This document shows, piece by piece, positions 14,725-50,922 of a stretch of 64,000 bases of DNA. The stretch is from Escherichia phage vB_EcoM_CUA3. Under the pieces are notes generated by a model that saw nothing but the letters and a program-made list of their open reading frames with translations, searched no databases and had not been told where the DNA came from. Numbering within the stretch: the stretch's first letter is position 1; the number at the start of each line of letters is the position of its first letter. The stretch is from the sequence record PP410321; one strand, given 5' to 3'. The position numbers and the translations under genes were made by a program.

Positions 14725-15246
14725 TTAATAACCTCGGTCCTGACGTGCAAAGTTCTCGGCATTTTTCAGGTAATACAGCTTAAAGATTTCTTCAGCAGTC
14801 AGACCAAGACCCTGGAACATATTCAGAACAAAGTGCAGAATATCAATCATTTCGAATTTAATTTCGAGCTGGTCTTCAGGAGACANNNNNNNNNNNNNNN
14901 NNNNNNNNNNNNNNNNNNNNNNNNNNNNNNNNNNNNNNNNNNNNNNNNNTGCATCTTTCTCACCGTTGCTCATACCACCAAGAGATGTCAGAAGTTCACG
15001 GAATTCGTCATCAATATAATCTTTCTGGTTGCGAAGCCAGTCGACAACTTGACCTGCAGTAGCTAATTCATCCGGATTAGCATTAAACTCTGATTTTTCA
15101 GTAGCCAGACGAACCTGTAATGATTTCTGCATATCAAGCATAACCTGCAGAGGGTCTTTATCTTCGTGAATCAGAGCATTAAAATAAGCTTCTTCAGCTT
15201 TATCAGCACCAGCAATCAGTTGAGAACATTCATTAAAATGAGCCAT
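14725..15246 (-). CDS. 56: dCTP pyrophosphatase (dCTPase, MazG-like all-alpha NTP-PPase)
   Basis: about 173 aa from MAHFNE; EIKFEMIDILHF-type helix; position next to primase as in T4; part of the interior N-masked. Confidence 0.75.
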   Translation of the reverse strand: MAHFNECSQLIAGADKAEEAYFNALIHEDKDPLQVMLDMQKSLQVRLATEKSEFNANPDELATAGQVVDWLRNQKDYIDDEFRELLTSLGGMSNGEKDAXXXXXXXXXXXXXXXXXXXXXXSPEDQLEIKFEMIDILHFVLNMFQGLGLTAEEIFKLYYLKNAENFARQDRGY

Positions 15247-21665: not shown

Positions 21666-22761
21666 TATATTTTTCCATAGGCACCATTATATTTTTCTCA
21701 CGTTTTAAGATAGGGTAATTATAACACTTCACAATTACAGCATTANNNNNNNNNNNNNNNNNNNNNNNNNNNNNNNNNNNNNNNNNNNNNNNNNNNNNNN
21801 NNNNNNNNNNNNNNNNNNNNNNNNNNNNNNNNNNNNNNNNNNNNNNNNNNNNNNNNNNNNNNNNNNNNNNNNNNACCACGTCCTCATAACTTGGCATTTC
21901 GTGCTCAGAATGGATATGGGCACCGAAATAAATGAATTCAGCCAGACCCGGATGGAATACTAAACCCGGGTTCTCATGATAAATGATATGTGGTCTTGAT
22001 TTCAGAATCTGATAATATTCAACCTTACTCGGTTTGAATTTAACAATCTCTACATCAGGACGATAGTCTTCACGTTTAAATGAATCGTTAGGGTCAGTGA
22101 TATAAAGACGAGCACCTTCAGCCGCAGCTTGGTCTACAACTCTTTCGAATTGATAACACTTATCCGAAATACGGAATGGATGGAAAATACCATCAATTTT
22201 AATAGGCGCTAGACCTTCAGAGTAACGCTCAATTACTACCGGATTAATTACCTTTTGATCTACAAAAATCTTATCAGAGGATGCACCTCGTGACACCAGG
22301 ACGTCTTTCTGACATTGGTTCAGGACCGTGGTATAAAGTGAACGTTCAACTGAAGCCACATCAATATCAATGAACTCGTCAATATAATAACGAGGAACTT
22401 CAGGGTCCATTGTGATATTAAAGTTGAATTGTACAGTCTGAGCACCATCATAACCTGTGATATCGGTTACCAGTCCTGAGCAATCATAGTATTCGATTAG
22501 CGAATCGACCACAAACTCGTTTTCAGACCAGAAATGTTTACGGGTTTCATAAGCATTTTCTTTATACCAAAGCGGCACAAAATTCAGTTCAGGAAATAAT
22601 TCAATGCATTCTTTGATATCGCTCGAATTTCTAGGATAAGCCAGATAATCACCTGGACGAGCACGATTTAAATGGAGTTGAAAATTACCGTCCTTAAGGA
22701 CGGCATATTCACCTGTTTCGTAACTACGCATACTGAAAATAGGAACGATAAACAGACTCAT
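21637..22761 (-). CDS. hypothetical protein in the beta-glucosyltransferase slot (candidate DNA sugar transferase); 3' end uncertain
   Basis: 374-aa track ORF between gene 42 and uvsX; no resemblance to T4 beta-gt as recalled; C-terminal part is N-masked and the ORF reads through a promoter-like region, so the true stop is probably upstream of 21700. Confidence 0.35.
   Translation of the reverse strand: MSLFIVPIFSMRSYETGEYAVLKDGNFQLHLNRARPGDYLAYPRNSSDIKECIELFPELNFVPLWYKENAYETRKHFWSENEFVVDSLIEYYDCSGLVTDITGYDGAQTVQFNFNITMDPEVPRYYIDEFIDIDVASVERSLYTTVLNQCQKDVLVSRGASSDKIFVDQKVINPVVIERYSEGLAPIKIDGIFHPFRISDKCYQFERVVDQAAAEGARLYITDPNDSFKREDYRPDVEIVKFKPSKVEYYQILKSRPHIIYHENPGLVFHPGLAEFIYFGAHIHSEHEMPSYEDVXXXXXXXXXXXXXXXXXXXXXXXXXXXXXXXXXXXXXXXXXXXXNAVIVKCYNYPILKREKNIMVPMEKYNVRFKIPFD
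21718..21745 (-). promoter_or_regulatory. possible middle promoter upstream of uvsX
   Basis: minus-sense GCTGTA, 12 nt, TGtTATAAT; CCCTATC follows; the -35 side abuts an N run. Confidence 0.3.
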
Positions 22762-23456
22762 TTCAGAAAACCTCGGACGTAGTCAAAATCACGTTCAAAC
22801 ACGTGTGCACTTACCATGGTATGAGAATATGTACCCAAACCAACACCACACTGTTCAGCAATAAAGGCCATCAGTTTACCTTGCAGATAAAAATCCAGCT
22901 GCATAACAACAGCACAGTTCTGTGAACGCATATGAGTGTGTGCATACAAACGACCATCACGAATATAATACGTTACTGAATCAGTGCATGGATATTCTAA
23001 GGATTCATCAGAATCAAGGAGGGCTTGGTCTTGTTCTTGGAGAATCTGGAATACAACTCTTCGGGAGTTAGGCTTTTCTTTAAGCTCTTTAAGTAGGGCT
23101 GGGAGTTGGGCCACAATTCGAGGTCCATAGAAAGTGTTGAAGTTTGCAGGCAATACGTCACTTTTCGGCTTATCAATGAACTTAGCAACATTAGGGTATT
23201 CCTTAAATGCTTCGGCAGCGTCAGTACCGCCAGAAATCATAAATTTCCAAAAGGATTCGGCATATTCGTAACTAATACGATTAATACGTGGGTCGGTGAA
23301 TTTATAGGTGCTTGCATCCAGTACTTCTACCGAAGCAGAACCAATTTCATAGCAACGTCCGATACGAGAATCAACTGCAAACTGTGGAGCTTCCAGGATT
23401 TCTTCGTTCATTTGTTTAAATGCGTTTTCAAAACTAACAGCGGTAATGTGTTTCAT
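22758..23456 (-). CDS. 42: deoxycytidylate 5-hydroxymethyltransferase (thymidylate-synthase fold)
   Basis: 232-aa ORF; catalytic-Cys context EYPCTDSVTYYIRD and MRSQNCAVVMQLDFY align with T4 gp42 FMCTNTVQYLIRD...MRSNDVVFGFRNDY, including the Asp equivalent to T4 Asp179 that marks cytosine rather than uracil specificity. Confidence 0.7.
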   Translation of the reverse strand: MKHITAVSFENAFKQMNEEILEAPQFAVDSRIGRCYEIGSASVEVLDASTYKFTDPRINRISYEYAESFWKFMISGGTDAAEAFKEYPNVAKFIDKPKSDVLPANFNTFYGPRIVAQLPALLKELKEKPNSRRVVFQILQEQDQALLDSDESLEYPCTDSVTYYIRDGRLYAHTHMRSQNCAVVMQLDFYLQGKLMAFIAEQCGVGLGTYSHTMVSAHVFERDFDYVRGFLK

Positions 23457-23989
23457 TTATTCACCTTATTTTCAATATATCCATTCAGACGTTTTAATTC
23501 TACCATATCAACATTAAGCAAATTATTATGGCCGTCGTGGTTTAAGATTTTAAACACGTTTTCAAAACATGTTTCGTATTGCCGGATAGTTAGGTTGAAC
23601 TCATCTTTGGTTAATTTAATAAGGTCGTCTTCAAAGTCTTCATCTAATGGATTACGAGTTAAAATAACCTCGATAACGTTAAATTCAGATTTAAACCCTT
23701 TCCAATCTTCCAGTTCTACATAAGGGTCCATTTCACCACGAAGGAATCCGGAGTAAACAATATTACTAGGGTATCCACGGTCTAAGATATAGACAAAATT
23801 AGGGTCTAAAAACTTATACAAGGTTTCAACCAAAGCCTTGTCATTATCAGTTCCTAATGAAATACATTTACCATTAATCTTTTTAGGAAAATCAATAAGA
23901 CGATATTTCTTATCAGATAAAAGGGTTTCGATTAAAGTAGACTTCCCGGAATTATCCGGGCCGTCTATAACAATGATTTTTGGATTCAT
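23453..23989 (-). CDS. P-loop nucleoside-monophosphate-kinase-like protein
   Basis: 178-aa ORF; Walker A GPDNSGKST; DRGYPSNIVYSG resembles the thymidylate-kinase DRY motif; no T4 gene at this position. Confidence 0.55.
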   Translation of the reverse strand: MNPKIIVIDGPDNSGKSTLIETLLSDKKYRLIDFPKKINGKCISLGTDNDKALVETLYKFLDPNFVYILDRGYPSNIVYSGFLRGEMDPYVELEDWKGFKSEFNVIEVILTRNPLDEDFEDDLIKLTKDEFNLTIRQYETCFENVFKILNHDGHNNLLNVDMVELKRLNGYIENKVNK

Positions 23990-24384
23990 GGATGATAGGC
24001 CTTATAACTATCAAGAGTTCCTTCACGAACCATTTCTTTAAAGTGGTCAGGACGGATTGCTCGGTCATCGATGATAAAAGTATAACTCGGCTTGTGTGTA
24101 AGCAAATTGTGATATTTCAATCCAATTTTTTCAAGGTTCTTAACCAATGCAGGAACTACTTCAACCAAGATTCGACCTGGGCCACATGAAGTCATACCAC
24201 GGGCAGTGAACAATGTAATCTCATGACCTTCATCGTACAGCTTATTAATCATGGACACCATTTCGGTGTCCGGTTTAAAGTTTTCATAATCACGGTCATG
24301 GTTCCAAATCGTGATTGTGTTATCGATGTCAAAGCACAANNNNNNNNNNNNNNNNNNNNNNNNNNNCATTAAATTTTCTTCCAT
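23986..24384 (-). CDS. HAD-superfamily phosphatase
   Basis: 132-aa ORF; HAD motif I LCFDIDNTIT; N-terminus partly N-masked. Confidence 0.55.
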   Translation of the reverse strand: MEENLMXXXXXXXXXLCFDIDNTITIWNHDRDYENFKPDTEMVSMINKLYDEGHEITLFTARGMTSCGPGRILVEVVPALVKNLEKIGLKYHNLLTHKPSYTFIIDDRAIRPDHFKEMVREGTLDSYKAYHP

Positions 24385-26042
24385 TGTTTGTGGAGTTCAG
24401 TAGAACCTGTAGGTTTATATTTTACACCAGTTTCCTGGTCAAGCAAAACCCACTTATCAGGGCAACGAGTAATAATTTGTGCCGTAATAGGGTCACGAAC
24501 TTCATCAACGAATTCACCTGTAATAAGCTTACGCTTACGAGGATGCCGCTTCAGCAGCACACTCAATTGATACAAACCGTTATAATAAGCGCCCAGAGCT
24601 TTCAGAGGATTATTCTTAAAGTAACCTGCCAGTGCCATCCAGATAACAGCAATCCAGAGCTTGTGCTTAAATGTGCACATAGGAATATCGTCTAAAGGCA
24701 TAACCTTTTCAATATCAACGAATACACGAGTTCCGTTACGAGTTAAGCCGCCCCATAGAGGGTCTGAGTTAAATTTGTCATAGCCATCGATAGAATAAAG
24801 CACCTTGGCTTCGTCATAAATCGCAGGGCCTTTAGAACTATTGCCGAAATAACCTCGTGGGTCGATGATTTTAATATCACCTTCGTCCGACAACATAATA
24901 TTGCTATAGTGCGGGTCGCCGTGAATAAGTTGGTATGGTTCTTTATGTTCGGACAGAATTTCTAAGGCATGACGTAGAAGTTTTTCAGGGTCGCCTACCT
25001 TGAAATCGTTAACATGGGTAATGCCCTGTGGAGCAAAGCCTTCAATCAATCCAGCAATAGAAGCATTACGAATCAGGACCTTATCCAATACTTCTTTCTT
25101 AACATCAGAATACCATTGCTCATCAGTCGGATTATCAATAGTTCCACCGAATGAACGTAATGCACTAATGACCTTATAAACCATGAGGACTTTAGTTTCT
25201 TTAGACATGAACCGGTAGGCATCTGCCATGGTACGACCAAAGATACGTTCCATTTTAATGAATTCGCCCGGAGCAAAGTCTACAATGCTCGGAACGAATT
25301 CAGAATCAATAGAATTATACCAATTGATTTCTTTAGATTGGATTTCTTTACCTAATTCGTTGGTTGGTACTTTAATAGCCAGATTCTCAGTGAATTCTAA
25401 TTTATTAAATTCACGGTTAATTTCAGATTCTTCATGAGCCTTGGCCAGTTTCAGTTTATCACCGACATCAACTACAAAGTCTAGTTTACGTTCGGTCAAA
25501 TAGACCATTGAATCCAGGTTATCAGCAAGGTCTTCACCGTAATTGGAACGGTCGAAACCTGTCCAATTAGCCACCTGATACAAACCAACTACGCCGCCAC
25601 CGGTACCAATTTCGCGCAAGTACGGTTCTTCAAATGTAAAACGACAATCGGTTCCATAGGTATAACAGTAGTCGTTACCCCATTCAACTTTATGGCCGAT
25701 AGGAATAATATCACACCAGTTAAACAGGACGTTATGCCCGATAATATCTTCAGCAATGCAATCGATAGCATGAGCTGAACCATTAGCAACATCAACGTTA
25801 CGAATAGTAAACTTAGGCTTATCGCCCGTAATCATGTTAATGGATTTAATATAGCCTTTAACGAGGTCGTTAAATTTGCTATGGATTACCAAAATGATTT
25901 CGTCGGATTGGTTACTGTACAAATCATACAAATGCTTTAATACCGTATGTTGTTTGTAGTTAACCAATACCTTAGGAATTTCGTTAGTAATTGGATACAA
26001 CCGTGAGCCAAGACCTGCGCCTAAAATAACAACCTTTTTCAT
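24369..26042 (-). CDS. bifunctional sugar-1-phosphate nucleotidyltransferase / sugar kinase (APH/choline-kinase fold)
   Basis: N-terminal KVVILGAGLGSRLYPIT...PKVLV is the G-x-G-x-R-L NTP-transferase signature; C-terminal LIHGDPHYSNIM...IKIIDPRG is the APH/ChoK catalytic HGD...N...D motif; start set at the internal ATG (MKKVVIL) with GAGGAA SD. Confidence 0.7.
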   Translation of the reverse strand: MKKVVILGAGLGSRLYPITNEIPKVLVNYKQHTVLKHLYDLYSNQSDEIILVIHSKFNDLVKGYIKSINMITGDKPKFTIRNVDVANGSAHAIDCIAEDIIGHNVLFNWCDIIPIGHKVEWGNDYCYTYGTDCRFTFEEPYLREIGTGGGVVGLYQVANWTGFDRSNYGEDLADNLDSMVYLTERKLDFVVDVGDKLKLAKAHEESEINREFNKLEFTENLAIKVPTNELGKEIQSKEINWYNSIDSEFVPSIVDFAPGEFIKMERIFGRTMADAYRFMSKETKVLMVYKVISALRSFGGTIDNPTDEQWYSDVKKEVLDKVLIRNASIAGLIEGFAPQGITHVNDFKVGDPEKLLRHALEILSEHKEPYQLIHGDPHYSNIMLSDEGDIKIIDPRGYFGNSSKGPAIYDEAKVLYSIDGYDKFNSDPLWGGLTRNGTRVFVDIEKVMPLDDIPMCTFKHKLWIAVIWMALAGYFKNNPLKALGAYYNGLYQLSVLLKRHPRKRKLITGEFVDEVRDPITAQIITRCPDKWVLLDQETGVKYKPTGSTELHKQWKKI

Positions 26043-26102: not shown

Positions 26103-26603
26103 TTAAATCTTATCTTTACCGTATTCCATGCACTGTTCTACTGCAGCAGGCACTTTGGTCTTAAGCTTGTTGATTTGTTTCTTATAATCACGAGCCTTAT
26201 CGAAGCTCTCGGTTTCGAGCATTTCGTAATAACGGGCCTCATGGATAGAAACCTGTAAATTGATATGGTTTACACACATCGCATACAGCTTCTGCTTTTT
26301 GTACAAATCATCTTGGCGCTTCATTTCTGCCTGGTGTTTGGCTAGTACCGCTTCACGCTTAGACTCTTGCTCACGTTGGAATTCAATTTCTCGTTGTGCG
26401 TATTTGGCACAGTTATTACCGCACTGATTATTAGCCCGGGTATACACAAGTCCAGAACCTGCACGGAATTTCATTTCACCGTCATATTGTTTCTGCTCAG
26501 CAGCAATACGAGCTTTACCAACTTCATCCGCCGAAACTGCATCACCGTATTGGACTGCGCAACCTGAAAGGAGCATACTCATTGCGATAATTAACTTTTT
26601 CAT
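26103..26603 (-). CDS. putative lipoprotein
   Basis: 166-aa ORF; signal peptide MKKLIIAMSMLLSGC with lipobox. Confidence 0.5.
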   Translation of the reverse strand: MKKLIIAMSMLLSGCAVQYGDAVSADEVGKARIAAEQKQYDGEMKFRAGSGLVYTRANNQCGNNCAKYAQREIEFQREQESKREAVLAKHQAEMKRQDDLYKKQKLYAMCVNHINLQVSIHEARYYEMLETESFDKARDYKKQINKLKTKVPAAVEQCMEYGKDKI

Positions 26604-33193: not shown

Positions 33194-33207
33194 TATTTTA
33201 AAGCAAT

Positions 33208-33399: not shown

Positions 33400-35081
33400 T
33401 CCATCACCGTGAATCGTCCAACTTTCTTCATTTGAAGATGTTGGCCGTAAGCTTGTGGGTCATGGTCTCGGTGAGAGATAATGAACACGTTCGTATCCTC
33501 AAGGCTATTCAAGATGGTTGCAATGCTCTTAACGCCTTCAGCGTCAGTTGCACTGTCAAATACCTCATCAAGAATCAGTGTGGATATATTAACACCCGAT
33601 ACCTTAGAAGCAATATCACGCCATGTAAAAAGAAGTGCGATATCAATACGTGCTTTCTCACCCTGTGAAAATGAAGCATAACTAAAGTCTTCACGTCCAC
33701 GTGATTTAATCGTCTCATTGAATTCTTCGTCTAGGGTAAAGACGTAGTCCGCTTCCATAATCTTCAAATAAGAATTAATCTGCTTATTAAAGATAGGAAT
33801 GTATTTCTTAATAATGGAACCTTTAATACCAGTATCCTTTAACATTTCTGTCAGAATTCCACGATGATATTTTTCCATTACCAAGGACGATTTGGTAGAG
33901 ACGATTTTATCAAGCTCTGCTTGAAGCGCAGCAATCTCTTCAGCATTACTTACGAACTCAGCTGCTGCCTGGTCAATTAATACCTTAACCTTTTTGGCTT
34001 TCTCGACAGCAGTAATAGCTTGCTGCTTATGAGTAGCTATCTGAGATTTAATAGCCAATGCTTTATTGCGTTGTTCGGTTACTTGGTCTTTAATGAGCTT
34101 GAGTTCTTGGTATTGCTCATTAATCTTATCCAAAGATTTTTGAAGCTCAAAGTTTTTATCCTTAATTTTAGTAAGGATGTTTCCATGCTCTTCTAACCCT
34201 TGCATACACGTAGGGCAGTGGCCACCTGTTTCGTATAACTTAACTACCTTTGTAAAGGTTGCCATATCATTTTTGATTGCAAATCCTTTATTACTCAGGT
34301 CACTCATGGAGTTGCTAGGGTCATCATCTACAATAACATTGAGTAATTCATCAGTCAGGGATTCTATGCTCGCCTTCGCAGTCCTGGCTTCTTTAACGAG
34401 CTCATCGTACATTAATTGCAGACGGGCAGCGTTCTCGCCGGATAATTTACGTTGACGTTCTTCGTTGTCATTATAAATTTTAATTTGTTGGGTAATAGAA
34501 TCCTGTTTAACGTCTATCACCTGGATTTGGCTATTAGTCTCACGAATCAAAGATTTGTTCAACTTATCCATATCCGCTAATACGGAAACCTCTAAAAGGT
34601 CTTCCACCAGCTTTCNNNNNNNNNNNNNNNNNNNNCCCATGAAAGGGGTGTACCCTGCCGTGCCAAGAACGACAATCTGTTTGAAGCTGGCGTAGGACAT
34701 TCCGATAAGCTGTTCAAATTCCGCTTGGAAGTCTTTACTGCTGGCAGATTCATCAAGACGTTCACCGCCACAGGAGATTTCGAAAACATTAGGTTTTTGC
34801 CCACGTTTGATATAGTATTCTTTGCCATCATATTCCATCCACAGTTCGACCAAAAGGTCTTTCTTATTACTTGAGTTAATTAATTGCCCTTTCTTAACAT
34901 CGCGAAAAGGCTTACCAAATAGAGCAAATGTAACGGCTTCAAGGAATGTTGATTTACCTGCACCATTCTTACCTGTGACTAAGGTCTTTTGGACCTTATC
35001 AAGTTGGATTGTGATGGGCTGTTGGCCTACCGACATAATATTTTTATACGTTACTTTCTTTAACTTAAAAGTCTTCATCAT
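33396..35081 (-). CDS. 46: recombination endonuclease subunit (Rad50/SbcC-like ATPase)
   Basis: Walker A GKNGAGKST, coiled-coil middle, C-terminal signature/D-loop; collinear with T4 gp46; start trimmed to MMKTFKL. Confidence 0.9.
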   Translation of the reverse strand: MMKTFKLKKVTYKNIMSVGQQPITIQLDKVQKTLVTGKNGAGKSTFLEAVTFALFGKPFRDVKKGQLINSSNKKDLLVELWMEYDGKEYYIKRGQKPNVFEISCGGERLDESASSKDFQAEFEQLIGMSYASFKQIVVLGTAGYTPFMXXXXXXXXKLVEDLLEVSVLADMDKLNKSLIRETNSQIQVIDVKQDSITQQIKIYNDNEERQRKLSGENAARLQLMYDELVKEARTAKASIESLTDELLNVIVDDDPSNSMSDLSNKGFAIKNDMATFTKVVKLYETGGHCPTCMQGLEEHGNILTKIKDKNFELQKSLDKINEQYQELKLIKDQVTEQRNKALAIKSQIATHKQQAITAVEKAKKVKVLIDQAAAEFVSNAEEIAALQAELDKIVSTKSSLVMEKYHRGILTEMLKDTGIKGSIIKKYIPIFNKQINSYLKIMEADYVFTLDEEFNETIKSRGREDFSYASFSQGEKARIDIALLFTWRDIASKVSGVNISTLILDEVFDSATDAEGVKSIATILNSLEDTNVFIISHRDHDPQAYGQHLQMKKVGRFTVME

Positions 35082-35328
35082 TATAAGCATCCTTGATGCA
35101 TGATTCAGCCATATGAATTAATGTTTCTGGAGTATCATCTACCATTACATTAAAGCTAAATTCCACAGCCCAATCAGTAGCAACATAGACTTTAATAAGC
35201 TCGTTGGTGTCACGAGTGCTCACAGCTTCAAACCAGAACTTAATTGTATTAGGTTGGCCGTCGTCATCAATAACTATACAGTCGTGTTCCAGTTCAAGTC
35301 CTGATTTTTTGAATTCATCTAAAGTCAT
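35065..35328 (-). CDS. hypothetical protein
   Basis: 87-aa ORF between 47 and 46. Confidence 0.4.
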   Translation of the reverse strand: MTLDEFKKSGLELEHDCIVIDDDGQPNTIKFWFEAVSTRDTNELIKVYVATDWAVEFSFNVMVDDTPETLIHMAESCIKDAYNDEDF

Positions 35329-36347
35329 CGTGTAACCTCATTATAAAGTTGCGCAGCCATAGTCTTAAGGGCTTTAACATCGTCTTCAGTGTGGCCATCA
35401 GGAAGGGCATCGATATAATCATACATCATATCCAAGAGGGATTTAACTTCATCTTCCTCTTCAGAATCATCGATATCAACACTATTATCTACCTTAGACA
35501 CAATACGTAAAGAGTGAACAACCTTTTCAAGCTCTGATTCGAACTTAGTAAGACCGTCATCAATTTTATCGACTATAACACGAACTGCGATATTTGTAAA
35601 ATCTTTGTAATCGATAGTCGCGTTAGGATAATGAATCTTACGATGCCAACAGGTTTCATTAATGATGAAATCCATTTTATGAGTTTCGGTATCGAAAATC
35701 CAGAAACCACGAGGGTCGTTCTCATCACCTGCAGTAAGGGTCCATGGAGTACCAATGTACTTAACGTTTGCTGCATCAGAAATAGTGTGGAAGTGGCCTG
35801 ACCAAACTTGCTTATACTTTTTAAGGAAATCAGGTTCTAAACCATGGGATTTCATTCCTTTATAGAAATAGAAACCATTTAATTCCCAGTGGCCGATACA
35901 GAAATCTGCTGTAGTATTTTTGATATGGTCCATGATATCGGTCGTGTTTTCTTCACACATCCATGGAATCAAATCAATTTCGGTGCCATCAAAGTTAACC
36001 GTAGTAGGTTTTTCAATAACCTTGATATGGTCATATTTACCCAGAACTTCAGAAGCAGCGTTAGGAGTCAAGGTATTTTTGTAGTGCATATCATGATTAC
36101 CAACAACGGTATACATGGTAATGCCATTAGCTTTAAGCAAATCAGAGATTTCGCGAGCGAATTCCATACACTTATGGGTAATTGCTTTACGAACATCAAA
36201 AATATCACCGTATTGAATCCATACAGTAATACCGTTTGCTTTAGAATAATTAATAGCGTCTTGGATACCTTGACGTTGGATATTCTGTACCCATACATCA
36301 TCGGCCTTAACTCCAAGGTGCCAGTCACCTGTGTTTAATATTTTCAT
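35325..36347 (-). CDS. 47: recombination endonuclease subunit (Mre11/SbcD-like phosphoesterase)
   Basis: 340-aa ORF; metallophosphatase motifs DWHLG, GNHD, GHWE. Confidence 0.9.
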   Translation of the reverse strand: MKILNTGDWHLGVKADDVWVQNIQRQGIQDAINYSKANGITVWIQYGDIFDVRKAITHKCMEFAREISDLLKANGITMYTVVGNHDMHYKNTLTPNAASEVLGKYDHIKVIEKPTTVNFDGTEIDLIPWMCEENTTDIMDHIKNTTADFCIGHWELNGFYFYKGMKSHGLEPDFLKKYKQVWSGHFHTISDAANVKYIGTPWTLTAGDENDPRGFWIFDTETHKMDFIINETCWHRKIHYPNATIDYKDFTNIAVRVIVDKIDDGLTKFESELEKVVHSLRIVSKVDNSVDIDDSEEEDEVKSLLDMMYDYIDALPDGHTEDDVKALKTMAAQLYNEVTR

Positions 36348-36525
36348 AANNNNNNNNNNNNNNNNNNNNNNNNNNNNNNNNNNNNNNNNNNNNNNNNNNN
36401 NNNNNNNNNNNNNNNNNNNNNNNNNNNNNNNNNNNNNNNNNNNNNNNNNNNNNNNNNNNNNNNNNNNNNNNNNNNNNNNNNNNNNNNNNNNNNNNNNNNN
36501 NNNNNNNNNNNNNNNNNNNNNNNNN

Positions 36526-36552
36526 AAAGCNAAAAAGGAGCCTAAGCTCCTT
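36526..36552 (-). terminator. rho-independent terminator
   Basis: stem AGGAGC/GCTCCT with CUAA-type loop, then T-tract on the minus-sense RNA. Confidence 0.45.
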
Positions 36553-36750
36553 TACCAATTAATATGCCATACAGAGGTTCGCGATTAGACGTGAACTTGA
36601 TTTTCTTATAAGTAATGGTACCTTCATTTTCCGCTTTAATACGAGCAGCTTCAAATTTAAGTATCATCTCATTTTTGTCAGATTTAATCTTATCAAAATC
36701 CATCGAATTCGTCATTCATAAAACCTCTTAAACTTTTTCGTATTCATCAT

Positions 36751-37005
36751 TCATAAGCTTAAAAATCCGGGTGTTCGTCTTNCGTTANNCANNNNNNNNN
36801 NNNANCATCGTTTCCACCATTTCTTAAGTTGATGAGAATCCACCCAAACCTTGGCTACAGGCTCAATCCGAAAAATTTCATCGGAATATTGCCCAACCAT
36901 TTTATATTCGGTTTCGGTCTGCTTAATACAGATATTACCGTATGAGCGAAGTCTAAAGGCGGCTCCAATAAGAAGCCGTTTAAAGGGTTTATTTACCAGA
37001 GCCAT
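36751..37005 (-). CDS. hypothetical protein (N-terminus masked)
   Basis: 84-aa track ORF with Ns near the start. Confidence 0.3.
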   Translation of the reverse strand: MALVNKPFKRLLIGAAFRLRSYGNICIKQTETEYKMVGQYSDEIFRIEPVAKVWVDSHQLKKWWKRXXXXXXXNXRRTPGFLSL

Positions 37006-37300
37006 TGACGATTTCCCAAATTTGTTTGCGGGTGGATTCCCACATCAATTGAACAAGTTCATCAGTAACAGGTTGACGGTAAATACCACGTAATTTAATT
37101 AAAGCGTACTTATATGCTTCAAAGTTGTTTTCAAGTACAGCGCCTTGGGCATGNNNNNNNNNNNNNNNNATTTCACGAGCATTCTTCTTAAGAATCTTAG
37201 CCGCTTGCGAATTAGCTTCTTTAATATTATGCTCTTCTAAACGTTGCTGGGCTTCTTCAATTTGCTCATCAGTCAATTGAGAAATGTCATGGCTTTGCAT
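36989..37300 (-). CDS. hypothetical protein
   Basis: 103-aa ORF; ATG with AAGGA SD. Confidence 0.4.
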   Translation of the reverse strand: MQSHDISQLTDEQIEEAQQRLEEHNIKEANSQAAKILKKNAREXXXXXXHAQGAVLENNFEAYKYALIKLRGIYRQPVTDELVQLMWESTRKQIWEIVNGSGK

Positions 37301-37499
37301 ATTAATCCTTNNNNNNNNNNNNNNNNNNNNNNNNNNNNNNNNNNNNNNNNNNNNNNNNNNNNNNNNNNNNNNNNNNNNNNNNNNNNNNNNNNNNNNNNNN
37401 NNNNNNNNNNNNNNNNNNNNNNNNNNNNNNNNNNNNNNNNNNNNNNNNNNNNNNNNNNNNNNNNNNNNNNNNNNNNNNNNNNNNNNNNNNNNNNNNNNN

Positions 37500-38070
37500 N
37501 NNNNNNNNNNNNNNNNNNNTGAGTTCCATATAAAAAATCCAGTTCACCGACTTTAGGTTCGGCACTCTTATCAGACCCTGGTGCTTTAGTTAAAGAGGTT
37601 TCATACTGTGTCATTTTGTCGTAGATATCTTGGATAAAGGTTTCATCTGCAATACCTACCATGTCGTCATCATTACTGTCGTAGACATTATGGACGAAGT
37701 AGCTATATTTCTTTGCCATTTCTTTACGTTCTTTCTTGATACGCTGAACAAAGGCATTAAAACAAGCCATAGTGATATATGCATGTGGGTTGTCGTATTT
37801 TGTTTCGTCGAAGTTGTGAAGGCCTTTAATAGAAGCTTCGATTCCATCAGCAATCATTTCTTGCTTCCAGGATTGGGTATACCCGGAGAAGTTGAAACGC
37901 TTAGAAAGGCCTTCAGCAATGAGCATAATAGCCAAGCCGATAACATCGTTCTGACGAACTATTTTATTAGGGTCGGTATTTTCTCTGAGTTCCGTTTTCC
38001 ACTGGGTAATGGCTTTCAGAAGCTCCTTATTATTTACATAGTTATTTTTAGTCAGTTTAATTTCGGTCAT
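37500..38070 (-). CDS. 55: late-transcription sigma factor
   Basis: N-terminal 183 aa collinear with T4 gp55 ([17 protein letters not shown]); C-terminus falls in an N run, so the end is approximate; the track ORF runs on artificially to 37273. Confidence 0.8.
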
Positions 38071-38396
38071 TGTTACCTCAGATAACTCAAAACATAGGTC
38101 TATTATATCATAGTATTTGGAGACCCGTTTAAAGCATCAACGGAGTAAGCAATAAGCCTGAAATACTGTTTCAAGAATTTTTTTGAACTCNNNNNNNNNN
38201 NNNNNNNNNNNNNNNNNNNNNNNNNNNNNNNNNNNNNNNNNNNNNNNNNNNNNNNNNNNNNNNNNNNNNTGGTTGTATTTGGAAATATGAGACTTCCACA
38301 CTTCAGAAGTCTCTCCACAAATAAACTCAACATTCATATAACTATCTATTAAGAAAAATCCTAAGCCTTCATAAGCTAATGTTATGGATACTGGCG

Positions 38397-38663
38397 TCAT
38401 TGTAGGAATCTGGCTCCTTCTAGTGCATCATCAAGATTATCAAACTCGTCAACGTAATCAATACCGCCGACCTCATCTTTAGCGTATAGCCAGTACTGTT
38501 TAAATTCATATTCGATAATAAAGTGGTCACCCTCAATCTGGAGAACCGCATCACTATTAAATTGAACTGCATAACCAGTAAAGCGAACATCATTCAGGAG
38601 TTCTTCTTTCATAGCAATCATTTCCAAGTTTTTATCGTAATTAGAGAGTTTTATTTTAATCAT
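38397..38663 (-). CDS. hypothetical protein
   Basis: 88-aa ORF. Confidence 0.4.
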   Translation of the reverse strand: MIKIKLSNYDKNLEMIAMKEELLNDVRFTGYAVQFNSDAVLQIEGDHFIIEYEFKQYWLYAKDEVGGIDYVDEFDNLDDALEGARFLQ

Positions 38664-38989
38664 TTCGCAGCCTTAACAATTTTAAGGTCAACGAATTTTT
38701 TCTTACGTTGATTCTTCATACGACGGATGGTTTTGTCTGTGATTTCACCTGGGTGCCAAGCTTTAGATTCGACACCAAAAGCGGCAACATCAAACTCATC
38801 AAGGATATATTGGACCAGGATTTCACGAATACCATTCTTACCGATTTTCTGGTCTTTAGAATGCATAATTGGTAACAGTTCAGCAACCCATTGGTCAAGA
38901 ACCTGAGGAGTTACAAAGCCAGTTTTCATCAGTTCGTTTACTTTATCGAAAGCGAAAGAGTTCAGTACGTTTTTAATAGCTTGTGACAT
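38660..38989 (-). CDS. hypothetical protein sharing its start module with 45642..46484
   Basis: true start MSQAIKNV with GAGGAAA SD; the first 5 codons and about 25 nt of 5'UTR are near-identical to the gene at 46484. Confidence 0.45.
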   Translation of the reverse strand: MSQAIKNVLNSFAFDKVNELMKTGFVTPQVLDQWVAELLPIMHSKDQKIGKNGIREILVQYILDEFDVAAFGVESKAWHPGEITDKTIRRMKNQRKKKFVDLKIVKAAK

Positions 38990-39029
38990 AATAATTTCCT
39001 CAGTTNNNNAATTTATAATCCGTAGGACC

Positions 39030-39059
39030 ATTATACTCCGGTCCCAAGAGTTTGTAAAC
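39030..39059 (-). promoter_or_regulatory. early-type promoter
   Basis: minus-sense GTTTAC, 18 nt, TATAAT; inverted repeat GGACC/GGTCC flanks the -10. Confidence 0.55.
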
Positions 39060-39259
39060 TATTTTTGTGCTAATGCACCTTTCCAACCTTCGTACATCGC
39101 CGCAGCCGATATTAATATTGCTCCTGCGCATTTTGAATATTTGTTATTCCAAAACCAGTTTAGAAAAACTTCGTCATCAATACCTTGGGCTATCATATTT
39201 TCAAAGAATTGACGACGGGCTTCAGCAACACGTTGTGATAATTTAGATTCAGGATTCAT
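39059..39259 (-). CDS. hypothetical protein
   Basis: 66-aa ORF, ATG start. Confidence 0.4.
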   Translation of the reverse strand: MNPESKLSQRVAEARRQFFENMIAQGIDDEVFLNWFWNNKYSKCAGAILISAAAMYEGWKGALAQK

Positions 39260-39391
39260 TTAAATTTTCCAGTTACCGTTTTCATCAATAAATTTAATCC
39301 AGTCATTTACTGACCACTTAGTCGTATCGCCTTTTGGAGCAACATTTAAAGTGTATAATCCTTGTTTAAAAAGCATACGTTTGATATTCAT
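39260..39391 (-). CDS. hypothetical small protein
   Basis: track ORF trimmed to the ATG (MNIKRMLFKQG) with GAGGAAAA SD. Confidence 0.3.
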   Translation of the reverse strand: MNIKRMLFKQGLYTLNVAPKGDTTKWSVNDWIKFIDENGNWKI

Positions 39392-39694
39392 ATTTTCCTC
39401 AGCTATAGTAATAACAGGTATTAGCTTTACGTTTGGCTGTTCGATGTGAAGTATTGTAATCCGGTTCGTCATCCATGTAAACATCTTTTTTCAGCTTTCT
39501 CACTTCNNNNNNNNNNNNNNNNNNNNNNNNNNNNNNNNNNNNNNNNNNNNNNNNNNNCATACGTTTCCATTTGTCTGAACGGAAGATATTTTCNNNNNNN
39601 NNNNNNNNNNNNNNNNNNNNNNNNNNNNNNNNNNNNNNNNNNNNNNNNNNNNNNNNNNNNNNNAATTCTTTACGACGGATAGTTTTACCCATAG

Positions 39695-39949
39695 TTACCT
39701 CAGCAGTTTGTATCCAATAAGATTTTTAATGTACTGGACATCTTTGACATCCAAATCCAACTTAATATCTTTCAGGCGTTCAGCCAGAGTAAGAAATGTT
39801 ACGCGTTTCCAATTCTTAACAGGACAGCAATACGTCTTAGGACCGTTGGCGATTTCAATATTTTTATCTGTGACGGTGAGAAAAACCAGACGCTCATCAT
39901 CAAGATTAAGGGTGATGACACTTTTGGTTGAATGTAGTTTCAGGCTCAT
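39695..39949 (-). CDS. hypothetical protein
   Basis: 84-aa ORF; AAGGAAA SD. Confidence 0.4.
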   Translation of the reverse strand: MSLKLHSTKSVITLNLDDERLVFLTVTDKNIEIANGPKTYCCPVKNWKRVTFLTLAERLKDIKLDLDVKDVQYIKNLIGYKLLR

Positions 39950-40122
39950 AATTCAATTTCCTTGGCTATCGAACAAAATATGGCGCGGTCACAAATCATT
40001 TTAATATTAAGTTCAATTATGGTATACCACACGTCCAGGCTAGATATTTCAGTTACTAGAACAGCTTTGCCGTTGATTGAATAATACTGGTCGGCTTTAA
40101 TTTCTTTATCTTGGATAGTCAT
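39946..40122 (-). CDS. hypothetical small protein
   Basis: 58-aa ORF below the track cutoff; GAGGAG SD; ATGA coupling to the downstream gene; promoter cassette upstream. Confidence 0.4.
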   Translation of the reverse strand: MTIQDKEIKADQYYSINGKAVLVTEISSLDVWYTIIELNIKMICDRAIFCSIAKEIEL

Positions 40123-40151
40123 AATGTTCTCCTCATGTGTTGATAGGATAG

Positions 40152-40180
40152 ACTATACCACGTGAGGAGAGGAAGTAAAC
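40152..40180 (-). promoter_or_regulatory. early-type promoter with SD-complementary spacer
   Basis: minus-sense GTTTAC, 17 nt, TGgTATAGT; spacer TCTCCTCACGTG pairs with 5'UTR CACATGAGGAGA (11 of 12). Confidence 0.6.
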
Positions 40181-40181
40181 A

Positions 40182-40499
40182 CTAATCTTCAATTAAATCT
40201 CGGTCATAACCAAGTTCAATCAAAAGTGCTTTAAAAGCAGGAATATTTTCTATTTTCTTATTATCAACAAAGATGACAGGATAGCGTATCGCTAAGCTCT
40301 TGAAGCCGGCCCGTTTGGCCAATGATACTATAAGAAGCTTGTCATATACTGCGCCTGACGGCGTCTGATTAATCACAGGATAGAAAGTATGTGGGATAGA
40401 AAGGGAATTTAGGAGCGATAGAACAGCAATGCACCCTGGACAGCGCATGACTGTCTCAGGGATACCGTAAATCTCAATTTTAGTTAACTTTTGGTCCAC
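40182..40499 (-). CDS. glutaredoxin/thioredoxin-like protein (CPGC active site)
   Basis: 105-aa ORF; KIEIYG...RCPGC redox motif; GTG start with AAGGAG SD. Confidence 0.5.
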   Translation of the reverse strand: MDQKLTKIEIYGIPETVMRCPGCIAVLSLLNSLSIPHTFYPVINQTPSGAVYDKLLIVSLAKRAGFKSLAIRYPVIFVDNKKIENIPAFKALLIELGYDRDLIED

Positions 40500-40776
40500 A
40501 GGAAATAACTCCTTGGTAGTCCCAAGTTTTTAGAACTTCGTCCTCATTAGTTCCATATGGAACGTAAATCTGGATAAGGAACCCGGTATCATCAAAAGAG
40601 AAGTAGACAGTAGGTTTAATACCATGAATCTCTGACAGAGCGTAGATGTCCTTGAGGTCGTCTTCCTTATCGACAAAGAATTCCGGGTTCAGGTCGCAGT
40701 CATGGAAGTACCAATCATCACCGAACTTGTCCCATGCGGTCCAATTCAAAGCTACATACTCTTCAAAACGTTTCAT
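40480..40776 (-). CDS. hypothetical protein
   Basis: 98-aa ORF; ATG with GAAGGTGA SD. Confidence 0.4.
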   Translation of the reverse strand: MKRFEEYVALNWTAWDKFGDDWYFHDCDLNPEFFVDKEDDLKDIYALSEIHGIKPTVYFSFDDTGFLIQIYVPYGTNEDEVLKTWDYQGVISCGPKVN

Positions 40777-40988
40777 TCTTTCACCTTCAGCATTTTTGCG
40801 ATAACACTATGAACAGACTGGATTCGTTTGTCGAACTCAGACCCTTCAAGACCCTTTTCAGTACTCAATGCGCCAATAATCATGAACAGCAATCCAAACG
40901 GAATAGCCAGGATTAAAAGGCATACGATAAACAGAACTAATGTAATATTGGCCAGGATATCAGAAACAGCATTACGAAATTTATTCAT
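40773..40988 (-). CDS. hypothetical membrane protein
   Basis: about 71 aa from MNKFRN; one to two predicted TM helices. Confidence 0.35.
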   Translation of the reverse strand: MNKFRNAVSDILANITLVLFIVCLLILAIPFGLLFMIIGALSTEKGLEGSEFDKRIQSVHSVIAKMLKVKE

Positions 40989-41094
40989 TAAAGAACCCAC
41001 ATGTTAGTTACAACAAATAACCATTGAGCTGGATACTCAACACCCATNNNNNNNNNNNNNNNNNNNNNNNNNNNNNNNNAGCCATAAAAATTAA

Positions 41095-41568
41095 TCATTT
41101 AAGCGATTTCCTCAGTTGTTTTTTAAATGAATCCACCATTTGTTTCTTAGTGGCAGATTCATTATAAGTCATTCCATGTGAAAGCATTTCAGCAATCATT
41201 TCTTCCTTACCCAACCTGCTGAACTCTTTGGTTTTATCAGGAACGAAATTAGGATGAATATTGTTTTCAGTATAATCGGTTTTCAGATAGACCAGCAAAT
41301 TCTCTAACCATTCGAGGTAGTCAACGTTTTGACCTTTCAAACCGGAACGGTTGAACTTATGCTTCATTTGTCCTTCTGCAGCATTGCACAGATTACATAG
41401 TAAACCACGAACCTTACCTGCTTTTGGCCCGTTCAATTCATGGTCGTGGTCAAGGTGGTTACTTTGAACATCAGGGTTTAATTCGCGCTTACAAATCAAA
41501 CACTTACCATGTTGTGCATCATAAAGTTTTTGTTTTTCTTCTTTGTATAATTTGCCACTCAGCAACAT
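41095..41568 (-). CDS. 49: endonuclease VII (Holliday junction resolvase)
   Basis: 157-aa ORF collinear with T4 endo VII (zinc-binding CLICKRELNP...HLDHDHELNGPKAGKVRGLLCNLCN). Confidence 0.9.
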   Translation of the reverse strand: MLLSGKLYKEEKQKLYDAQHGKCLICKRELNPDVQSNHLDHDHELNGPKAGKVRGLLCNLCNAAEGQMKHKFNRSGLKGQNVDYLEWLENLLVYLKTDYTENNIHPNFVPDKTKEFSRLGKEEMIAEMLSHGMTYNESATKKQMVDSFKKQLRKSLK

Positions 41569-41573
41569 AATAA

Positions 41574-41604
41574 ACCCTTACCATTATTAGATAAGGGTAT
41601 TTAT
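41574..41604 (-). promoter_or_regulatory. RBS-sequestering hairpin with late-promoter-like motif upstream of gene 49
   Basis: minus-sense TAATAAATA followed by ACCCTTA-(11 nt)-TAAGGGT then TTATT-ATG; the 3' arm contains the AAGGG SD. Confidence 0.4.
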
Positions 41605-42377
41605 TANNNNNNNNNNNNNNNATAGAACGAACGGTGCAACCGTTTAAATTGACGAATCATCTTTTTGGTAGGACGGGTATACAACCCTATACAAGTGGCC
41701 ATAAACTGGTCAGTAGGACTTCCTTTGATAAGAAGTTTCCAGACCTTGTCACCGTTAAACTTTTCGGTATANNNNNNNNNNNNNNNNNNNNNNNNNNNNN
41801 NNNNNNNNNNNNNNNNNNNNNNNNNNNNNNNNNNNNNNNNNNNNNNNNNNNNNNNNNNNNNNNNNNNNNNNNNNNNNNNNNNNNNNNNNNNNNNNNNNNN
41901 NNNNNNNNNNNNNNNNNNNNNNNNNNNNNNNNNNNNNNNNNNNNNNNNNNNNNNNNNNNNNNNNNNNNNNNNNNNNNNNNNNNNNNNNNNNNNNNNNNNN
42001 NNNNNNNNNNNNNNNNNNNNNNNNNNNNNNNNNNNNNNNNNNNNNNNNNNNNNNNNNNNNNNNNNNNNNNNNNNNNNNNNNNNTTCATCAGAACGCCTTA
42101 TCAGCAAAGCGAAGTTGAGCTTCAAGCCAATGGATATAATCAGCTGCAGCNNNNNNNNNNNNNNNNNNNNNNNNNNNNNNNNNNNNNNNNNNNNNNNNNT
42201 CGTAAAGTGAATGTTCAATCAGACGGCCTTTATGTCGGCCAACTTCAATTTTGGTACTCATATCCAAACTCCATATCGATTAAATCATTGTTTGAAGGTT
42301 CATTATACTCTATTTCGGAATCGTTGTAAACCGGTTCCTCTGGCTCGGTAGTTTCCCACCGAGCGACATACCATGGC

Positions 42378-42686
42378 TTAACGGTCACACCACCAACTAC
42401 TTACTTCAAAATCAGGCTCGCCGTTTTCCCAATACCAAGGGCCAACTGGATGCCAATCGCCATGTTCATCTTCTTCAAATTCTTCAGATTCAAGCCCAAC
42501 GTATTGCCATTGGACTTCATAAGCGGTGCCACCGATTACAACAGTGTTCTCGCCATATGGATGGGCTACAGCAAAGTCTATACCTTCTGCTTTGGCTAAC
42601 CAAACCATATATTCGTATAGCTTATATTCCAGGTCATCTTCGGTGCCATCACCTAGAAAAATGGTTTGTTCGTTTAATTCAATCAT
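42378..42686 (-). CDS. hypothetical acidic protein
   Basis: 102-aa ORF; ATGA coupling with the nrdC stop. Confidence 0.4.
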   Translation of the reverse strand: MIELNEQTIFLGDGTEDDLEYKLYEYMVWLAKAEGIDFAVAHPYGENTVVIGGTAYEVQWQYVGLESEEFEEDEHGDWHPVGPWYWENGEPDFEVSSWWCDR

Positions 42687-42946
42687 TTGAAATACGCTCG
42701 CAGTTGGTCAAACCCACCGATAGAAGTTCCGTCCGGAGCAAATACCTGAGGCATGGTCAAACCTACTTGAGATTCACGACCAAGAGCAGCCAGGAGTTCA
42801 GCAATCTTCTCATCATCAAATACGCCTTTTTCCGGCATCACGTTAATGAATTCGTAAGGTTGTTTCTTAACATCAAGCAGACGTTTGGCATTATCACAGA
42901 AAACACAACGGTGAATATTTGAATCGTAACCATAAACTTTAAACAT
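42683..42946 (-). CDS. nrdC: thioredoxin/glutaredoxin
   Basis: 87-aa ORF collinear with T4 NrdC (MFKVYGYDSNIHRCVFCDNAK...). Confidence 0.85.
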   Translation of the reverse strand: MFKVYGYDSNIHRCVFCDNAKRLLDVKKQPYEFINVMPEKGVFDDEKIAELLAALGRESQVGLTMPQVFAPDGTSIGGFDQLRAYFK

Positions 42947-43388
42947 TTTAAATTCCTAATACTTGTTTGAATGCCTCAGAACGGTCAAGTTCTGTTCCAT
43001 ATTTTTCCATGTGCTCATATTTTAAATCATACACATCAGATAGTATATTATTATACGAGCGAGTTAAAGCAGATTTCAATACCGAATAACTGTCCGGGAA
43101 TTTACCGTGCTCTTTATAATAAGCTAGAGTAAGTTCGCGGACTGCCTTATCGGCAGCCTCTACATATTCTTTACGCTTTGCCATTTTCAACTCTATCAAA
43201 TTTATGTTTACAATGGCGACATTTNNNNNNNNNNNNNNNNNNNNNNNNNNNNNNNNNNNNNNNNNNNNNNNNNNNNNNNNNNNNNNNNNNNNNNNNNNNN
43301 NNNNNNNNNNNNNNNNNNNNNNNNNNNNNNNNNNNNNNNNNNNNNNNNNNNNNNNNNNNNNNNNCAATATCTTCAGCTAAACGTTGTT

Positions 43389-44399
43389 TCATTTCAACAG
43401 CTCCAGAGCTTGTTCAAGACGGTCTAAACGATTGGTAGACTCTTCCCAAAGTTTCTTGGCGGCAGTATATTGACCGGTAAGTTTTTTGTTAATAGCAAGG
43501 GCATCTTTATACGCTTTTTCCAAAGCAACTATTTCTGGCAACTTAGATTTAGTAATTGGCGTAGGAGCCATGATAGGGCTATTCAAGTCATTAATCAAGT
43601 CTTCTAATGTAGCAGGCTCTTTATCAATGTTCACAATTTCCTCACATTTTTCTTGGTAAATTTCGGCATCAGTTTTTGGAACACGGCATTTGATTTCACG
43701 GACTGTTACTAAGACCTCATATCCTTTCCAGCCTAAGTGGTGTTTAACTTCTTGGGTCTCATATTTCTCTACTGTATCCATCAGAGCTAAAGCTTGTTCG
43801 ATAGTATTCAAGGTATCATAAGCAATATCTTGATACTTTACAACTTCCGCGTCATCTTTAGGTTTCCTATTAGGTGACCAAATAACAGAAATAATTGCTT
43901 TTCCTTTATAACTATTTGTTTTAATCATGCAATTCGCCATAGGGTGAATAGTACGGGAACCACCGGAAACTATGGTTTTAGAGGCCGCTTTGAGAATTAA
44001 TGCAGAGTTAGCCTTGAATTCGGTAACCCAACGTTGTGGAAATAAACTACTAGGGTCCATACCTTTAATTTTGATATAACTTTTTATGGTATCACCAAAC
44101 CATTTGTAGCTAACAGCATGGCTAGAACCCGGATATTTCTCTTTACCGAACTCAGAAAGGATGTCCTTATTGACCAGTCGCGAAAGCAGTCGAGAACCTT
44201 TAAATGTATTTACGATATCAGGAATAAACAAGCGACCCGCGATCTTTTCGATTTCGGCTTTGAAACAGCGCGATAATGCATCATCAATTTGGTCGACCCA
44301 TTTATTGATATTAGAAACTATTACCACATATGGGGTTAATGGAGGGGTGTTGGCAGTGATATACGTAGTAAAGGCATTGATGTATTCAGTACGAGTCAT
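43389..44399 (-). CDS. hypothetical protein
   Basis: track ORF trimmed to the ATG (MTRTEY) with GAGGAG SD downstream of a promoter cassette; about 336 aa. Confidence 0.45.
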   Translation of the reverse strand: MTRTEYINAFTTYITANTPPLTPYVVIVSNINKWVDQIDDALSRCFKAEIEKIAGRLFIPDIVNTFKGSRLLSRLVNKDILSEFGKEKYPGSSHAVSYKWFGDTIKSYIKIKGMDPSSLFPQRWVTEFKANSALILKAASKTIVSGGSRTIHPMANCMIKTNSYKGKAIISVIWSPNRKPKDDAEVVKYQDIAYDTLNTIEQALALMDTVEKYETQEVKHHLGWKGYEVLVTVREIKCRVPKTDAEIYQEKCEEIVNIDKEPATLEDLINDLNSPIMAPTPITKSKLPEIVALEKAYKDALAINKKLTGQYTAAKKLWEESTNRLDRLEQALELLK

Positions 44400-50912: not shown

Positions 50913-50922
50913 TTTCCGTTCC

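Follow-up and report, generated by a model that had tools for sequence, protein, structure and literature searches.

In phage T4, the T-even system built on gp42 and the alpha- and beta-glucosyltransferases (alpha-gt and beta-gt) yields glucosylated 5-hydroxymethylcytosine (hmC). The DNA of phage RB69 carries arabinosylated 5-hydroxycytosine (5hoC) and not arabinosyl-hmC (Lee et al., NAR 2026; PMC13326640), so that, compared with T4, the base is 5-hydroxylated rather than 5-hydroxymethylated, O2 and flavin are needed, and arabinose takes the place of glucose. In this system RB69 gp48 is the 5-hydroxy-dCMP synthase, using O2 and flavin, and an Asn at the position of Asp169 of Escherichia coli ThyA is diagnostic for its activity; enzymes of the RB69 gp52:53 type make UDP-arabinose, and the AfhF-type reaction converts arabinose-1,5-bisphosphate to arabinose-1-phosphate (PMC13326640). 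The same study names the Dhakaviruses among the groups with a syntenic arabinosylation cluster. Previously, RB69 and JS98 had been described as having homologues of genes 42 and 56 and no glucosyltransferases (Petrov et al. 2010; PMC2993671), and a hidden Markov model survey found only a class I ribonucleotide reductase (RNR) in JS98, JS10 and IME08, compared with classes I and III in T4 and RB69 (Dwivedi et al. 2013; PMC3653736, Additional file 1). Here we compare with these systems a 64,000-nucleotide stretch of Escherichia phage vB_EcoM_CUA3 (sequence record PP410321; the window, meaning the whole stretch analyzed), and in particular its positions 36348-41094, for which an earlier note had claimed that the alpha-gt, anaerobic RNR and dam genes of T4 are lacking.

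The window forms the left arm (first 64 kb) of a Dhakavirus genome, a JS98/JS10-type T4 relative of the Tevenvirinae. We consider it very probable that this Dhakavirus, which is without the T-even glucosyl-hmC system, Dam and a class III RNR, places arabinose on 5hoC by means of a gene cluster between imm/43 and uvsX, and that its window sequence is a consensus guided by the genome of JS10. The earlier note was right in its observation and in its interpretation, and since the literature on the group already contained both, none of it is new.

Results

Three intervals that are shorter than in T4

The absence of the glucosyltransferases, the anaerobic RNR and Dam is confirmed, and it is visible in the lengths of three intervals bordered by well conserved genes. 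All genes across the 36348-41094 region lie on the minus strand. Its left border is gene 47 (35325..36347), annotated in JS10 as an SbcD-like recombination nuclease subunit and 71% identical to T4 gp47 over 339 aa (E = 6e-163), which is followed by gene 55, the late sigma factor (37513..38070, 80% identical to T4 gp55, E = 5e-96). Between the two there are 1165 nt in the window (36348-37512) compared with 3152 nt in T4, and the excess of 1987 nt in T4 is close to the length of a-gt (1203) plus mobB (795). As the earlier note had it, there are only small open reading frames (ORFs) where T4 has alpha-gt, namely 47.1, a-gt.2, a-gt.3, a-gt.4 and a-gt.5 (36344..37529, minus strand, JS10 annotation), which belong to PHROG families of unknown function (E = 1e-29 to 5e-41) and follow the same order in RB69 and dhaeg; alpha-gt and mobB are both absent from this set. 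Within it, 47.1 and a-gt.5 are mostly masked by N in the window. The 265-aa ORF at 37273-38070 (minus strand) is an artefact of an N run that masks the boundary of a-gt.5 and 55 and fuses the two, gp55 being 185 aa in JS10.

The interval from 55 to 49 measures 3024 nt in the window (38071-41094), versus 6224 nt in T4 and 5721 nt in RB69, both of which carry nrdG and nrdD there. Apart from an NrdH-like protein bearing a CPGC motif, it contains 11 small ORFs, in keeping with the earlier description of small ORFs and a CPGC redoxin at the place of the nrdH, nrdG and nrdD genes of T4. On its sequence this redoxin, of glutaredoxin/thioredoxin fold (40182..40499, minus strand), is an NrdH ortholog, matching a thioredoxin-domain PHROG and being 60% identical to T4 NrdH from residue 2 (E = 2e-36) and 64% identical to RB69 NrdH. 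Its start is probably the GTG at 40499, giving 105 aa as in T4 and in dhaeg, where the homolog is annotated at 318 nt. The JS10 annotation starts the gene at 40448, just ahead of the CPGC motif, by which the first beta-strand of the thioredoxin fold is cut off. At lower coordinates lie eight small conserved ORFs (EpJS10_0063, 55.1, 55.2, 55.3, 55.4, 55.5, EpJS10_0069 and 55.6; 38137..40122, minus strand, JS10 annotation; PHROGs of unknown function, E = 1e-28 to 8e-54), and beyond the redoxin an EpJS10_0072-like ORF and the membrane protein gene 55.8 (40480..41000, minus strand, JS10 annotation, PHROG matches). Since each of the small ORFs in 36344-41000 matches a PHROG of unknown function (E = 1e-28 to 1e-54), we take them to be ordinary conserved small genes of T4-type phages. 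Gene 49, endonuclease VII, which forms the right border (41095..41568, minus strand, 87% identical to T4 gp49, E = 2e-93), follows only 94 nt beyond 55.8, at the point where T4 and RB69 carry nrdG and nrdD, and T4 mobC as well.

The junction of 55.8 and 49 is filled by a tiny ORF (40988-41098, minus strand), the length of which is 36 aa in the window, 37 in JS10 and 41 in dhaeg. This ORF is conserved within the Dhakaviruses, and it has a 4-nt overlap with the stop of gene 49, an arrangement also seen for nrdD in T4. The idea that this ORF or the junction is the scar of an nrdD/nrdG deletion was rejected, as comparison with NrdD and NrdG of T4 and RB69 and with their flanks matched only the 55.8 gene and gave no remnant.

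The third interval lies outside this region. Gene 56, encoding dCTPase/dUTPase (14725..15246, minus strand), is 61% identical to T4 gp56 in the window and 68% in the unmasked JS10 sequence (E = 2e-65), so that this enzyme, which is common to the T-even and the arabinosyl systems, is present. The gap from 56 to 61 is 291 nt (15247-15537), compared with 1149 nt in T4, of which dam takes 780 nt, and 282 nt in RB69, which has no dam there; neither tblastn nor phmmer gave a Dam match, and the earlier statement that no Dam-like gene lies between 56 and 61 thus stands. The gap holds a 66-aa hydrophobic ORF (15341-15541, plus strand) that is without annotation in JS10. Small ORFs on this same strand, opposite to their neighbours, also occur between 56 and 61 in RB69 (ORF029w) and dhaeg (dhaeg_231), and the 66-aa ORF resembles ORF029w weakly (23% identity, pairwise E = 5e-6).

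Searches of complete genomes

The window and the complete genomes of JS10 (171,451 bp) and dhaeg (170,817 bp), the latter being the top megablast match and a separate species, were searched by tblastn with T4 a-gt, b-gt, Dam and NrdG and with RB69 NrdD (intronless, 605 aa) and NrdG. Nothing better than E = 0.027 was obtained in the window, 0.07 in JS10 or 0.05 in dhaeg, and the positive controls gp47, gp55, gp49, gp56, NrdH, Imm and 55.8 gave E values of 1e-12 to 1e-163. Searching 3,956 six-frame segments of the three sequences with phmmer returned the same absences, the sole match (43 aa, 10.7 bits, with the NrdD/NrdG queries) being noise. For alpha-gt there was no match in dhaeg or by phmmer, and the best by tblastn (E = 0.027 in the window, 0.07 in JS10) is a chance match of 36 aa; a candidate at 24112-24219 (E = 0.03-0.07), it lies inside the AfhF-like gene described below and was rejected. 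T4 b-gt gave at best E values of at least 2.8 in JS10 and the window and nothing in dhaeg or by phmmer, the T2/T6 beta-alpha-gt not being among the queries. No tblastn match to RB69 NrdD, RB69 NrdG or T4 NrdG had E < 0.05 in any of the three sequences, so that neither component of a class III RNR was found. The best tblastn value for Dam was at least 0.8, with none by phmmer, and hence no member of the Dam family was seen, unrelated methyltransferase families not having been screened with profiles. The annotations of JS10 and dhaeg likewise list none of a-gt, b-gt, dam, nrdD and nrdG, and both include nrdA and nrdB. The lineage keeps the aerobic NrdAB together with NrdH and NrdC, and the whole-genome tblastn that the earlier note had proposed as a check places the missing genes nowhere else in these two genomes.

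Construction of the window sequence

To what extent these absences depend on how the window was built can be judged by comparing it with its relatives. With window positions 33000-43500 (10.5 kb) as the megablast query, 1,021 phage records matched, 48 of which covered at least 80% of the query; the top matches were the Dhakaviruses dhaeg, JS98, CLB_P2 and JS10 at 92-94% identity, and the JS10 match spans 33000 to 43500, that is, the unchanged query coordinates. When the window was aligned directly to bases 1-64000 of JS10, the 57,750 unmasked positions showed 2,992 mismatches (5.2%, or 94.8% identity) without a single indel or shift of register. The mismatches in 13 genes fall at codon positions 3, 1 and 2 in numbers of 682, 78 and 20, the codon changes are 678 synonymous versus 63 non-synonymous, and transitions (2,111) outnumber transversions (881). 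This pattern of substitutions is that of natural divergence, but sequences that have diverged naturally by 5% would not be entirely free of indels. The window also holds 6,250 N in 93 runs, and it is collinear with dhaeg, but many gaps are needed to align the two. It is probably not a de novo assembly but a consensus built with JS10 as the reference and representing a related or mixed Dhakavirus population, and any insertion relative to JS10 would be hidden in such a consensus. High nucleotide identity and full synteny with JS98 and JS10 place the source phage in the genus, and differences of ∼5%, mostly synonymous, from each of JS10, JS98 and dhaeg make it a distinct strain, a species-level variant or a mixed consensus.

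In places, as at 50135-50925, the window reaches 99-100% identity to dhaeg over short stretches, and other segments are nearer to JS10. At soc, JS10 has two tandem genes annotated at 14150-14694 (minus strand), dhaeg apparently a single gene, and the window only N (14148-14723); this stretch may differ between the source phage and JS10.

It could be argued from this construction that the absences are an artefact, with the genes either lying under N runs or dropped by the JS10-guided consensus. The complete lack of indels at this level of substitution, the 93 N runs and the gapped alignment to dhaeg are all compatible with such a loss, and IME281 and UP19 do carry an extra homing endonuclease in the 33000-43500 stretch. 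However, N within 36348-41094 amounts to only 654 nt, with the longest run at 209 nt, and the JS10 sequence beneath these runs consists of 47.1, a-gt.5 and parts of small ORFs; the runs are, as previously pointed out, too short for a 600-aa nrdD or a 400-aa alpha-gt. The stretch matching the 10.5-kb query is 10.4-11.8 kb long in 18 distinct relatives (among the 25 matches listed), too little to accommodate nrdD or a-gt at these loci. In JS10 and dhaeg, for which the complete genomes were searched, the genes are missing throughout, and the published surveys agree. We therefore regard an artefact as extremely unlikely.

The modification cluster between uvsX and imm/43

The note had suggested that missing both glucosyltransferases fits a different DNA modification chemistry, and genes of the RB69 arabinosyl-5hoC type are indeed found at 21.9-26.0 kb of the same window. 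Where T4 carries segA, beta-gt and 42 between uvsX and imm/43, the window has six ORFs (21868-26603), all on the minus strand. The collinear RB69 orthologs are gp48 (80% identity), gp46/gp47 (65-70%), gp51 (62%), gp54 (53%), gp52/gp53 (41-44%) and gp45 (38%).

The second of these ORFs (22758..23456) is predicted to encode a 5-hydroxy-dCMP synthase of the thymidylate synthase family (232 aa; Pfam Thymidylat_synt) and has RB69 gp48 as its 80% ortholog. It matches the phage enzyme structures 9iqu, 9iqc and 9ir2 in the PDB at E = 2e-126. In an alignment with E. coli ThyA, JS10 Td, T4 gp42 and RB69 gp48, the window protein has Cys146 and the changes L143E, N177D and D169N, exactly as gp48, and the motifs ...MRSQNCAVVMQLD... 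and ...LEYPC... follow the gp48 pattern. Hence the combination of D169N, Cys146 and N177D that marks the synthase of the arabinosyl system is present. T4 gp42 keeps Asp169, and no dCMP hydroxymethylase of this type was found in the window, the sole homolog being the same protein, with Asn at this position and only ∼25% identity to gp42 (tblastn, E = 2e-9).

This last match, weak as it is, could be taken to mean that the ORF is a divergent gp42, that the DNA contains plain, unsugared hmC and that the neighbouring genes are unrelated to DNA; Petrov et al. assign JS98-type phages an allele of gene 42 and leave further modification of hmC open (PMC2993671). Such a reading would have to set aside the much closer relationship to gp48, which has been shown experimentally to make 5-hydroxy-dCMP (PMC13326640), the Asn in place of the gp42 Asp at ThyA position 169, and the fact that a GT-B transferase and enzymes for UDP-sugars are encoded in the same operon-like block, and we consider it very unlikely.

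The next three ORFs are candidates for nucleotide and sugar metabolism. A P-loop nucleotide kinase homologous to RB69 gp45 (23453..23989) is related to RB69p045 at E = 1e-30 and to a thymidylate kinase PHROG at E = 1e-38. It is followed by an AfhF-like HAD phosphatase of 132 aa (23986..24384), the homolog of RB69 gp51 (62-63% identical to RB69p051), with matches to PDB entries 9iqw (E = 5e-54) and 1xpj (E = 5e-12), and by an AfhE-like bifunctional sugar kinase/nucleotidyltransferase of 557 aa (24369..26042), homologous over its full length to RB69p052/p053 (gp52:53), with Pfam NTP_transferase (residues 3-100) and APH kinase (residues 346-417) domains and weak matches to nucleotidyltransferases in the PDB. 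By sequence similarity, then, both the AfhE-type and the AfhF-type enzymes of the arabinosyl-5hoC system appear to be encoded here.

The sixth ORF (26103..26603) encodes a predicted lipoprotein of 166 aa with the N-terminus MKKLIIAMSMLLSGC, is a member of PHROG 1754 (function unknown) and gives no Pfam match above the curated cut-off. It sits between the UDP-arabinose enzyme gene and imm and is conserved in dhaeg; the first 50 kb of T4 and RB69 gave no match to it. As it occupies the place of RB69 gp55, we considered whether it could replace this arabinose-5-phosphate isomerase and rejected this on account of its lipoprotein signal, the lack of a Pfam match and the lack of similarity to gp55. 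It may act at the surface or in exclusion, as the neighbouring imm does.

A candidate DNA sugar transferase next to uvsX

Adjoining uvsX, at the site of segA and beta-gt in T4, lies the ortholog of RB69 gp46:47, the putative DNA arabinosyltransferase 1 (21868..22761, minus strand). In the window the ORF extends to 374 aa (21637-22761, minus strand), compared with 297 aa in JS10, with an N run masking the stop codon (21868). For the 297-aa protein neither Pfam nor a sequence search of the PDB gave a match, and the 117 homologs present in public data are all called hypothetical. They belong to T4-type phages infecting Edwardsiella, Yersinia, Acinetobacter, Serratia and others, and one of the Serratia phages among them is 92A1, reported to carry arabinosylated 5hoC (PMC13326640). 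An AlphaFold2 model built from a 44-sequence alignment (mean predicted local distance difference test score 94.1, predicted template modelling score 0.88) has the GT-B fold, which became apparent only from this predicted structure. Foldseek with this model returned only UDP-sugar enzymes of GT-B type, such as MshA (3c4q) and UDP-GlcNAc 2-epimerases, and its top matches, 6kih and 3c4q, are those published for RB69 gp46:47. With its fold and its 65-70% identity to gp46:47, the protein would correspond to the GT-B arabinosyltransferase 1 and is a candidate DNA sugar transferase at the beta-gt locus, without sequence similarity to alpha-gt or beta-gt. To judge by the model, the phage is thus not without a DNA sugar transferase, and the lack of alpha-gt and beta-gt is accounted for by a lineage that does not use the T-even glucosyl-hmC system.

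Discussion

It can be seen directly that the genes are absent, that the cluster is orthologous to RB69 enzymes, that the active-site residues are the diagnostic ones and that the model has the GT-B fold, and from these we infer the chemistry of the source phage. In the proposed pathway gp56 would remove dCTP and thereby restrict the dC that enters DNA to its modified form. The product of the synthase would be phosphorylated for incorporation by the gp1 dNMP kinase, perhaps together with the P-loop kinase of the cluster, and the AfhE-like kinase/uridylyltransferase and the AfhF-like phosphatase would convert arabinose-5-phosphate to UDP-arabinose, from which the single GT-B transferase would add arabinose to the 5-hydroxyl of cytosine in DNA.

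Several points weigh against this proposal. Neither tblastn nor phmmer found the gp55 isomerase, the U32-like protein gp50 or the second transferase gp3 of RB69 in the window, JS10 or dhaeg, so that neither a gp55-type isomerase nor the second (beta) transferase for di-arabinosylation is on hand; together with the modest identity of the AfhE-like protein (41-44%), this means that a different sugar, or a different number of them, could be attached. The window covers only 64 kb of the source genome, and absence from the remainder rests on two relatives of ∼95% identity, in addition to which a reference-guided consensus cannot show insertions. In the accessible literature we found no chemical analysis of Dhakavirus DNA. 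The RB69 cluster gene product numbered gp49 is also without a counterpart in JS10 or dhaeg.

In RB69 the second arabinosyltransferase lies at the position between rIIA.1 and 39, which is occupied by gene 60, 60.1 and mobA in T4. A 107-aa ORF of the window at this position (2423-2746, minus strand) is unannotated in JS10 and hypothetical in dhaeg (dhaeg_258). We looked for a remnant of a second transferase in this gap and found only small ORFs.

The missing genes bear on the possibility that the base is 5hoC but that the sugar is not arabinose or is not a single arabinose. Other 5hoC phages attach hexoses, RL38J1 being an example (PMC13326640), and the lack of gp55, gp50 and gp3 and the divergence of the AfhE-like protein would fit a pathway of this kind. 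The AfhF-like phosphatase, however, remains close to RB69 gp51 and to 9iqw, the transferase is 65-70% identical to gp46:47, and the isomerase may not be needed from the phage at all. E. coli makes arabinose-5-phosphate through KdsD and GutQ for the synthesis of 3-deoxy-D-manno-octulosonic acid (Kdo), which probably makes a phage isomerase dispensable. A different sugar or sugar number accordingly seems improbable to us, and the attachment of arabinose to 5hoC by the uvsX-43 cluster is still the preferred reading.

Within that preferred reading, the absence of gp3 suggests that only one arabinose would be added, and the absence of gp55 that KdsD and GutQ of the host would supply arabinose-5-phosphate. 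A stripped-down pathway with one transferase could then produce mono-arabinosyl-5hoC from host arabinose-5-phosphate, and the loss of nrdD and nrdG may be linked to the O2-dependent chemistry. As the synthase needs O2 and dCTP is destroyed, replication would be impossible under anaerobic conditions whatever the RNR, and nrdD and nrdG would be without selective value. RB69 keeps both the arabinosyl system and nrdD/nrdG, so that loss of the anaerobic RNR is a trait of the Dhakaviruses rather than something that goes with the arabinosyl system in general. We offer this combined scheme as a doubtful, speculative extension.

The gene absences are expected for the genus and raise no new question. 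The cluster is of practical use for annotation, since the ORFs between uvsX and 43 that are called "hypothetical protein," "thymidylate kinase" or "phosphoheptose isomerase" in JS98-type phages, and "putative thymidylate synthase" in dhaeg, are DNA hypermodification genes. The modification decides which restriction, CRISPR and type IV systems a phage escapes or triggers, a question of relevance because JS98-type phages are studied as candidates for phage therapy.

Among known systems, the window differs from the glucosyl-hmC system of T4, having no glucosyltransferase homologs and a synthase that resembles gp42 only distantly, with Asn and not Asp at the diagnostic position. To RB69 and the Mosigviruses, with their gp45-gp55 and gp3 genes and the Afh pathway of phage HY126, it is closer. 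RB69, too, has no a-gt, b-gt or dam; unlike the window it has gp55, gp50, gp49, gp3, nrdG and nrdD, with the lipoprotein ORF of the window standing at the place of gp55, and the two share the synthase, transferase 1, the AfhF-like and AfhE-like enzymes and the nucleotide kinase, all between 43 and uvsX. With JS10, JS98 and dhaeg, finally, the window has the same gene order and content throughout, at ∼95% identity in the unmasked sequence, including both the three "empty" intervals and the modification cluster.

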